From an uncultured virus (IMG/VR IMGVR_UViG_3300024505_000864) (Duplodnaviria; Heunggongvirae; Uroviricota; Caudoviricetes): a stretch of DNA of 20,000 nt. The stretch lies in IMG/VR virus record IMGVR_UViG_3300024505_000864; one strand, 5' to 3'. A model generated the notes under the pieces. That model was given only the letters and a program-made list of their open reading frames with translations. It did no database searches and had not been told where the DNA came from. Shown one piece after another: positions 1,010 through 12,867 of the stretch. Made by a program: the position numbers and the translations under genes. Numbering within the stretch: the first letter of the stretch is position 1; the number at the start of each line of letters is the position of its first letter.

Positions 1010-1261
1010 CGTTCCGAGTCGGCGTACTTCCGTCCTATTTAATTTTAGCACTTTTGAATAAAATCCTTTCGGAGTTCTAATAGCAATCGGTCTTCTGTTC
1101 TTTGATTAACTACATCGTCGTTTTTAACGATGTCCATTAGTTCCCACACAGTATCACAACTAAGTTTAACTGCATATTCAGTTGCAGTTAGTTGTGAAGT
1201 AGAAAAAGAAAGAAATGGAACCCATGCTAAAAGCAAAAGTGCTTTAGCCATAGGATGAACG
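1010..1261 (-). ncRNA. Glutamine riboswitch-like aptamer 1 with a ~210-nt ORF-containing P2 loop
   Basis: 5' half CGTTCA-TCCTAT (1261-1250). 3' half ATAGGA-CGGAAGTACGCCGACTCG-GAACG (1038-1010). Contains the GGAAGUA junction of glnA aptamers and shares GCCGAC with aptamer 2. Confidence 0.7.
1045..1251 (-). CDS. 68-aa hypothetical protein with signal-peptide-like N-terminus, nested in aptamer 1
   Basis: ORF track. Hydrophobic MAKALLLLAWVPFLSFS start and two Cys. Nearly leaderless relative to the predicted promoter. Confidence 0.6.
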   Translation of the reverse strand: MAKALLLLAWVPFLSFSTSQLTATEYAVKLSCDTVWELMDIVKNDDVVNQRTEDRLLLELRKDFIQKC

Positions 1262-12719: not shown

Positions 12720-12812
12720 TAGTCCATCAGGGAAATGGTGGAGTTACTTATTTCTCTATCACCCTCAGATAGAGACATGAGAGACGTAATTTATACACCC
12801 ATAGGTCTCGGT
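12720..12812 (-). ncRNA. Structured psbA 5' leader, PhotoRC-II-like RNA motif
   Basis: GAGAC/GTCTC, TCTCTATC/GATAGAGA with a TGAGGGT loop, and CCAT-TTCCCTG-ATGG hairpins. Matches my recollection of the cyanophage psbA leader motif; not confirmed by covariance search. Confidence 0.7.
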
Positions 12813-12867
12813 TAACGGGTGTTAAAAAATGTTTCAAATTGTGAGGAATTCGAAACATTTGCTTACC

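Follow-up and report, generated by a model that had tools for sequence, protein, structure and literature searches.

The type 1 glutamine riboswitch (RF01739) is built from a 5′ AUCGUUCA, a P2 helix, the string CGGAAGUA and a closing GGAACG, and in the portions of its descriptions available to us it occurs in tandem, behind a promoter and upstream of DUF4278, as in the gifB (IF17) leader of Synechocystis (PMC2864571, PMC6212724). Known members of the class turn on translation of gifB/DUF4278, according to the accessible part of the study concerned (PMC6212724). As far as the available text of earlier surveys goes, glutamine aptamers were reported in two cyanophage genomes only (PMC5473149), and two isolates with such an aptamer were reported in another (PMC9004378). 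Here we describe a locus that shares these elements and this arrangement, in a 20,000-nucleotide stretch of DNA from an uncultured virus (IMG/VR record IMGVR_UViG_3300024505_000864), the whole of which is referred to as the window. We consider it likely that window 1261-1010 is the first of two side-by-side glnA-type glutamine aptamers, that the tip of its P2 is replaced by a real 68-codon gene, ORF68, and, by inference, that folding of the aptamer competes with translation of the gene.

A gene enclosed by a glutamine-type aptamer

An earlier note on this DNA had proposed that a whole open reading frame (ORF) lies in the P2 loop of a glutamine-type aptamer, and P1, P2 and the ORF are all present as it described. 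On the minus strand, to which all window coordinates refer, the order is promoter, AUCGUUCA-UCCUAUG, ORF68, then AUAGGA-CGGAAGUACGCCGACUCG-GAACG. The P1 5′ strand CGUUC of this unit, aptamer A (1261-1257), pairs with GAACG (1014-1010) and is followed by the junction A at 1256; the P2 5′ strand UCCUAU (1255-1250) pairs with AUAGGA (1038-1033) and includes the A and U of the ORF68 start codon. ORF68 extends over 68 codons (1251-1045), from an AUG (1251-1249) that sits in the P2 5′ strand beside the junction, 10 nt from the start of P1, to a UAA stop (1047-1045), and the unit is completed by the 3′ core CGGAAGUACGCCGACUCGGAACG (1032-1010), which takes in the P1 3′ strand. Within the coding sequence an extended stem joins AGCACUUUUG (1243-1234, codons 3-6) to CAAAAGUGCU (1056-1047, in the final codons plus the first stop base). 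When the 259-nt unit 1263-1005 is folded by itself, P1, P2 and the extended stem are all part of the minimum-energy structure, whose energy of -71.4 kcal/mol (z = -4.5) is matched by 0 of 200 shuffles.

Aptamer B, which has an ordinary short P2, follows at 965-924 (CGUUC-A-UCCU-ACUAA-GGGA-CGCAAAAGCCGACGGAAGGAACG) and is itself followed by a DUF4278-like ORF (889-752), in keeping with the tandem of aptamers upstream of DUF4278 that had been proposed. The string TCGTTCATCC, of which 0.03 occurrences would be expected in the 20-kb window, occurs there twice, as the 5′ ends of both aptamers, and two matches were reached in 0 of 200 window shuffles. The nested layout in the window is confirmed as real, with chance excluded.

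Ahead of P1 lies a sigma-70-like promoter at 1298-1270 (TTGACT 1298-1293, a 17-nt spacer and TATACT 1275-1270; 10 of 12 consensus matches), from the position of which transcription is predicted to start 0-3 nt before P1. This promoter, also put forward in the earlier note, has counterparts in the relatives described below: 74 of 108 distinct upstream regions carry a sigma-70-like promoter whose end lies 7-10 nt ahead of CGTTCA, compared with 4.8% of shuffles, so that aptamer A would have a leader of only about 10-13 nt.

Recurrence of the layout in cyanophages

IMG/VR was scanned with two 3′ cores, type A (CGSAAGUANGCCGACUCGGAACG) and type B (GACGCAAAAGYYGACNGAAGGAACG), each of which matched at least 120 loci. 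The loci of both scans among the matches listed, together with the window, represent 229 distinct aptamer units, and all counts of units and leaders given here refer to this set. A P2 insert of 120-240 nt is present in 138 of the 229 units, the other 91 having one of less than 40 nt, with none between; type A contributes 74 short and 39 long P2 units and type B 17 and 99 respectively. In all 138 long inserts an ORF opens 9-12 nt downstream of the C of CGTTCA, and in 137 it reaches the core or ends at most 17 nt from it. Type-B nested ORFs mostly (93 of 99) stop at the UGA of GACUGAAGG, giving the C-terminus DAKAD, and 21 of the 39 type-A nested ORFs stop at the UAA of CGCAAGUAAG, giving the C-terminus GRK. 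Both stops are part of the aptamer consensus and are present in short and occupied units alike; the subfamily of ORF68 has its stop 13-17 nt ahead of the core.

Among 106 distinct two-aptamer leaders, aptamer A is empty and B occupied in 60, both are occupied in 21, both are empty in 14, and A is occupied and B empty, as in the window, in 11. The layout occurs in the cultured phages P-SSM4, Syn9, P-HM1/2 and S-TIM4; P-SSM4, Syn9 and P-HM2 have both aptamers occupied, with two nested genes each, and Syn9 has a TTGACT-17-TATAAT promoter 6 nt ahead of ATCGTTCA. The named relatives DSL-LC02, S-SRM01 and DSL-LC03 present a promoter and then a short aptamer with the 3′ core of window aptamer A; next comes a 50-55 codon ORF, opened by ATCGTTCATCTATGG and closed within ...AAAAUAGACGCAAAAGCCGACUGAAGGAACG, and then the DUF4278 gene, so that the gene-holding aptamer is here the second one. 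The layout is common in T4-like cyanophages.

Searching with the ORF68 protein alone returned 80 loci, representing 45 distinct versions. CGTTCA-N3-6-ATG is found in 44 of the 45, and both aptamer halves flank ORF68 in 41 of the 43 evaluable versions (two end at contig edges), with 40 type-A cores; one ORF68-type relative, L265, has a classical glnA core with a P3 hairpin and GAAGGAAC. In an alignment of the 41 units the core and P2 strands show little or no change, AUAGGA being identical in 41 of 41; variation is found in the spacer behind the stop codon and at most third codon positions.

The window stretch was also found in 20 metatranscriptome runs from 19 studies, as assembled contigs that give no start, strand or level. 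Contig variants include one in which a short hairpin is joined at the same junction (1033), one that lacks 59 nt at 949-1007 and one whose sequence diverges exactly upstream of 1261. A loose 16-nt pattern applied to contigs of bacterial genomes matched at least 120 loci, nearly all of them chance matches in unrelated bacteria; L386 alone is real. This 3.8-kb contig, from a bin labelled Acetobacteraceae, carries a B-type nested unit (...CKFIDAKAD) and is probably a mis-binned cyanophage fragment.

As a separate observation, aptamer A of L008 (662-856, minus strand) and aptamer B of L120 (308-505, minus strand) hold nearly identical proteins (MP.LLYLSLLASHEPVHWTIKCDQWSEL...), whose C-terminal tail changes from GRK to DAKVD to match the respective core. 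From its sequences, this pair suggests that genes move between the two aptamers.

Pairing across the nested gene

For the analysis of P2, units were anchored at the junction and collapsed to 107 distinct rows, and as a control the 3′ partners were redealt among the rows. Position 3 is paired in 100% of rows (C-G 66, U-A 36, U-G 4 and A-U 1) against a shuffled mean of 77% and maximum of 84%; the corresponding figures are 87% against 43% and 53% for position 4, and 94% against 48% and 64% for position 5. At least five contiguous pairs from the junction are formed by 91 of the 107 own pairs but by 21% of cross pairs, and positions 3-5 also covary in 68 short type-A aptamers. Thus the helix across the nested gene is kept by compensatory changes in the wider family, and at least four of the five P2 pairs are present in the minimum-energy fold of 121 of the 138 long-P2 units.

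Pairing continues beyond P2. The two terminal 40-nt stretches of the insert are joined by a mean of 13.1 further pairs, compared with 3.7 when the interior is dinucleotide-shuffled; the shuffled value is exceeded in 117 of 138 units (Wilcoxon p = 3e-20), and in some lineages 14-20 contiguous pairs link the first codons to the last. The perfect 10-bp stem reported for the window in the earlier note exists and forms part of the minimum-energy fold, but in the window's own subfamily it shows only invariance or G-U-compatible changes and no compensation: in relatives compared by eye 7-10 bp are retained, with no double-sided changes.

A 5′ half forms more pairs with the 3′ half of its own aptamer (6.0) than with that of the other aptamer (2.3), the own half being the better in 97 of 106 leaders, so the two aptamers lie side by side. 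An alternative 'outer/inner' topology, in which the 5′ half of A would pair with the 3′ half of B, is rejected by the same P2 register (6.0 against 2.3 pairs).

A further conserved hairpin, ACAUCGUU/GACGAUGU, lies inside ORF68 (1133-1112, alignment columns 131-152), where the pair 132-151 is C-G in 38 and U-A in 3 of 41 sequences. The hairpin spans the codons for DIVKNDDV, and one side of the C-G to U-A change alters the protein (V to I). A 36-nt stretch around it appears as a k-mer contig of very high depth in metatranscriptomes.

The nested genes and their proteins

The nested ORFs, which have 49-73 codons, are, on their sequence features, genuine coding genes. The ORF68 protein has a hydrophobic N-terminus and two cysteines, Cys32 and Cys68, and at least 250 homologues of 66-69 aa. 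Alignment of its 41 units reveals 35 invariant columns and length differences in multiples of three, and against 31 distinct relatives the median dN/dS is 0.385. With this value, the recurrence of the insert and the covariation of P2 positions 3-5 in the wider family, the search of cyanophage genomes proposed in the earlier note for long P2 inserts, covariation and dN/dS gave a positive answer on each count. The third position varies in only 4 of codons 1-10 of ORF68 but in 47 of 52 interior codons. ORF68 matches no Pfam family and no PHROG, a tblastn search of 50,697 isolate phage records gave no match, and its AlphaFold2 model is poor (pLDDT 57.7).

The nested family of the other type-A subfamily and that of type B are homologous (hhalign probability 96.7%, E = 4.7e-10), with two cysteines as the only invariant residues shared, and match phrog_504, phrog_6471 and phrog_13397, all of unknown function; none of 116 nested proteins matched Pfam. 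The B-nested family is modelled confidently (pLDDT 87.5, pTM 0.65) as a two-helix hairpin with a poorly ordered tail that is dictated by the RNA. Foldseek comparison of this model with the PDB returned nothing at E ≤ 0.001, and the ESM Atlas returned only the protein's own viral cluster.

Initiation signals separate the nested genes from those downstream. A motif resembling a Shine-Dalgarno (SD) sequence precedes 1 of the 138 nested ORFs, compared with 106 of 109 downstream genes (SD-N4-10-ATG after distinct B cores).

Relation to the glutamine riboswitch class

Aptamer A has several of the features that define RF01739. Its P1 consists of CGUUC/GAACG with an unpaired A (1261-1257/1014-1010, A 1256), its P2 is a helix between CGUUCA and CGGAA with covariation in the wider family, its junction at 1033-1025 reads ACGGAAGUA, which is identical to the Rfam consensus string, and the leader position is that of the class, the DUF4278-like ORF standing behind aptamer B. 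The P3 hairpin and GAAGGAACG of RF01739 are the exception: aptamer A has CGCCGACUCGGAACG instead, with no P3 hairpin and with CUCGG in place of GAAGG. This type-A core is nevertheless common to the 74 short units among the matches listed, several of which score above the Rfam threshold.

The gathering score of RF01739 is 35 bits and the gathering threshold of RF01704 (Downstream-peptide, glutamine-II), a class with a pseudoknotted fold of two hairpins, is 33 bits. Short-P2 relatives of both window cores give 14 matches of 35.4-40.1 bits to RF01739, with two more at 34.2 and 33.3 bits. One of them, L059, is a natural 'collapsed' analogue of aptamer A, having the same P2 base (UCCUAU/AUAGGA) and differing from the window core at one position outside the insert; it scores 38.1 bits. 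A model built from 68 short type-A aptamers matches window 1032-1010 with 27.1 bits (E = 5e-5), and over the whole window matched only the two true 3′ cores, although with a pseudo 5′ strand borrowed from inside the ORF. Run on sub-stretches cut inside P2, this model produced no truncated alignment, the 3′ half alone giving 17.5 bits and the 5′ half nothing useful. As regards RF01704, the best match in the window is 15.2 bits, on aptamer B, and the best among the relatives is 32.7 bits. Membership of the lineage in the glutamine riboswitch class is well supported by these sequence comparisons, and glutamine binding by these aptamers is inferred from them.

The few phage examples in earlier surveys may be due to the fact that covariance models cannot span the insert, and phage glutamine riboswitches are probably undercounted.

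Other features of the locus

The window originates from a T4-like cyanophage, and its nearest named relatives are Kyanoviridae phages. It is marked as cyanophage by a PhotoRC-II RNA at 12740-12834 (minus strand; 80.5 bits, E = 7e-13), its sole Rfam match at the gathering threshold. The two aptamers are separated by a linker of 44 nt (1009-966), an outlier given the 3-5 nt found in 104 of 106 distinct leaders; it has its own hairpin, whose GGAAUG can also pair with the next CGUUC. The gene behind aptamer B (889-752) has a Shine-Dalgarno sequence, AAGGAG, at 903-898 and encodes a 45-aa DUF4278 protein (IF17-like 'downstream peptide'), which matches phrog_5049 (E = 1e-10) and, below the cut-off, PF14105 (E = 0.0017). 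Directly behind it lies a 33-codon ORF (755-654), with an annotated counterpart in the same place in S-SRM01 (L002, 1391-1492), followed by a terminator-like hairpin and T run (647-629) that, to judge from its sequence, probably ends the transcription unit.

In several marine contigs a manA RNA (168-175 bits) is found a few hundred bases downstream of the leader (L037:175-372, L072:159-360 and L074:868-1065), in L074 beside a tRNA.

Discussion

The nested-gene layout is new, in a riboswitch class that is itself known, and is both widespread and overlooked. No description of a gene inside a glutamine aptamer was found in the available portions of the literature searched (PMC2864571, PMC6212724, PMC5473149, PMC9964418, PMC12379486, PMC9004378, PMC9602691, PMC10907184 and PMC10043782), in agreement with the earlier note, whose author knew of none. 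Likewise, the nested 5′ halves of the three most frequent kinds have 0 occurrences in the Weinberg 2010 glnA alignment file, of which 27 rows were read and whose gap columns leave room elsewhere for loops of about 130 nt at most.

Several results weigh against the reading of window 1261-1010 as a glutamine aptamer whose folding competes with translation of the gene it encloses. Neither window aptamer reaches the RF01739 gathering score in an Rfam search of the window: aptamer B attains 27.8 bits (E = 8e-4) against the 35 required, and aptamer A cannot be scored by the covariance model across its 223-nt insert. The Rfam check of a collapsed aptamer that had been suggested comes out favourably for the short-P2 analogue L059 but not for the exact core of aptamer A with another short P2 (S-SRM01, L002), which scores 28.9 bits against RF01739, nor for RF01704. 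As to folding, when aptamer B is added the minimum-energy fold joins the CGUUC of A to the GAACG of B, and full P1 appears in the minimum-energy fold of just 103 of the 138 long-P2 units. The first 50 nt can form a local hairpin (CCUAUG/CAUGGG and AAAGCA/UGCUUU, 1254-1221; -13.5 kcal/mol, z = -2.7) that contains the ORF68 AUG and competes with P2, and RNAalifold applied to the 41 ORF68-type units has it in its consensus, favouring this local 5′ hairpin together with CGUUC/GGACG. P1 and P2 never vary in these 41 units, which therefore yield no covariation, and because both helices are invariant the RNAalifold fold is uninformative about them. More generally, P1 was fixed by the search patterns, so that its conservation is not independent evidence, and the covariation and pairing counts ignore shared ancestry.

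The gene, too, gives some grounds for doubt. ORF68 is only weakly similar to the other nested families, with hhalign probabilities of 13% (E = 0.002) and 2% (E = 0.023), although the latter alignment, with the other type-A subfamily, places both cysteines in register at the same 36-residue spacing. Of the 43 evaluable versions, 2 retain the gene but have no usable aptamer, and the aptamer is thus not strictly needed by the gene: at L270:389-800 both cores and the DUF4278 gene are gone, leaving an ORF68-type and a B-type small gene back to back before a terminator, and in L289 the 5′ half is mutated (CAGTTCA), with a terminator directly after the ORF. Finally, binding, transcript start, translation and regulation are all read from sequence, and the metatranscriptome matches are assembled contigs.

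The most durable alternative, albeit an unlikely one, is that ORF68 is a passenger in a permissive P2 loop, in which case the aptamer would sense glutamine for DUF4278 only and the gene would be translated co-transcriptionally, whatever the glutamine level. A loop of this kind is suggested by the free variation of P2 tips in short aptamers, the existence of all four combinations of empty and occupied aptamers (60, 21, 14 and 11 of 106 leaders), the nearly identical protein in aptamer A of L008 and aptamer B of L120, the contig variants of the same locus with a short hairpin at the same junction and the persistence of the gene without cores in L270 and L289. The integration of gene and aptamer exceeds mere tolerance, however: the AUG lies inside or beside the P2 5′ strand in 138 of 138 units, the nested ORFs have no Shine-Dalgarno motif, their stops are drawn from the aptamer consensus (the UGA of GACUGAAGG and the UAA of CGCAAGUAAG), their terminal codons are shaped for mutual pairing, and no ribosome can sit on the AUG without physically opening P1 and P2.

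Considerably less probable is that the two halves no longer sense glutamine and are either a panhandle that protects or processes a small mRNA or the recombination scars of cassette shuffling. The end-to-end pairing, of up to 20 contiguous pairs, goes beyond what an aptamer needs, and recombination could plausibly occur at the CGTTCATC and GGAACG motifs, which are repeated 3-5 nt apart, yet scars would decay, whereas P2 stays complementary through A-U, U-A, C-G and U-G states. Similarly, the window core has CUCGGAACG rather than the classical GAAGGAACG and scores below the Rfam threshold, but the same type-A core passes RF01739 when it carries a hairpin, occupied units keep their cores as well as empty ones do, and the cores of the units found by protein are far better kept than synonymous sites or the spacer between stop and P2. 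That the insert is a structured non-coding RNA domain with an incidental ORF is hardly credible, for although the structure is strong (z = -4.5), the internal hairpin has compensatory changes, synonymous change is suppressed in codons 1-10 and the ORF68 model is poor, the frame is unbroken in 137 of 138 cases and the AUG keeps a fixed position, lengths differ in multiples of three under a median dN/dS of 0.385, two cysteines are invariant across very divergent sequences, a related nested family folds confidently and the gene callers or annotators of P-SSM4, Syn9 and P-HM2 list the nested ORFs as genes.

Returning to the preferred reading, in which aptamer and gene share one helix, the position of the AUG within the P2 5′ strand means that ribosomes could load only while P1 and P2 are open. 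A ribosome on the ORF68 AUG would cover both helices, making loading and aptamer closure mutually exclusive, and ribosomes could load either on the nascent RNA, during the roughly 220 nt of transcription that precede the 3′ core, or on an unfolded aptamer. Once the unit is complete the aptamer would close, and glutamine would stabilise the closed form and shut off ORF68, with the local 5′ hairpin (-13.5 kcal/mol) as a further competing state; conversely, a ribosome translating ORF68 would hold aptamer A open. The arrangement of start codon and helices suggests that nitrogen sensing and nested-gene translation probably compete on one RNA. The Synechocystis gifB switch suggests, by analogy, that the bound aptamers would favour translation of DUF4278, and since known glutamine riboswitches switch gifB/DUF4278 translation on, the inner and downstream genes could respond to glutamine in opposite directions. 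We offer tentatively the fuller proposal of a reciprocal switch, in which glutamine-stabilised folding would silence the inner gene, which has no Shine-Dalgarno sequence, and turn on DUF4278, while ribosomes on the inner gene would reset the sensor. Stops within the cores, which leave 30-45 nt to the next AUG, might in addition couple translation along the chain of genes.

If the competition holds, the locus provides a compact opposite response of two genes to one metabolite and a natural case of translation and ligand sensing acting on the same helix; if the reciprocal switch is true, the nested genes would represent a nitrogen-poor programme and the downstream gene a nitrogen-rich one, within one early phage transcript. 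The small helical proteins, stapled by their cysteines, may act on host nitrogen metabolism. On a bold reading, the nested genes would be cassettes passed from one P2 loop to another when the repeated halves of the aptamers recombine. The layout gives a context to three PHROG families of unknown function, linked to phage manipulation of host nitrogen status, and its occurrence in cultured model phages with tractable hosts makes these proposals directly testable.

Riboswitches are usually described as acting on what lies downstream, whereas here the sensor encloses a gene whose start, stop and terminal codons are part of its helices. Compared with RF01739 as described, P2 encloses a whole gene of 49-73 codons and not a hairpin loop, the nested start codon lies in P2, the stop codons of the other subfamilies lie in the 3′ core, and the window core has CUCGGAACG in place of the P3 hairpin and GAAGGAACG. 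The nearest precedent is uMetE2 of the Mycobacterium tuberculosis metE cobalamin riboswitch, where, in the part of the report available to us, a translated frame in the aptamer extension P9-P10 interferes with the switch (bioRxiv 10.1101/2023.04.25.538288). There a short upstream ORF (+123 to +170) is described as regulatory and not as a conserved protein family, and the candidate upstream ORFs of metE are credited with Shine-Dalgarno sequences, again as far as the accessible text goes (bioRxiv 10.1101/2023.04.25.538288), whereas all but 1 of the 138 nested ORFs described here lack such a motif. uMetE2 belongs to a different riboswitch class and replaces no hairpin with one formed by its own first and last codons.

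A second parallel is provided by group I introns, in which the RNA folds around an ORF in a peripheral loop and occupied and empty forms coexist. Those of T4-like phages carry homing-endonuclease ORFs and, in the portion of the source at hand, resemble the present case in that a structured RNA tolerates a gene in a peripheral stem (PMC3984707). They differ in that the host RNA here is a predicted ligand sensor and not a ribozyme, that start and stop are built into the helices of the host, and that in this analysis the nested proteins gave no sign of being nucleases or self-spreading. Dual-function RNAs provide a third comparison. In SgrS/SgrT and RNAIII/hld one RNA is both a regulator and the mRNA of a small protein, and the regulator acts in trans by base-pairing with its targets; in the layout described here the regulatory part would instead be a cis-acting metabolite aptamer that encloses the ORF.

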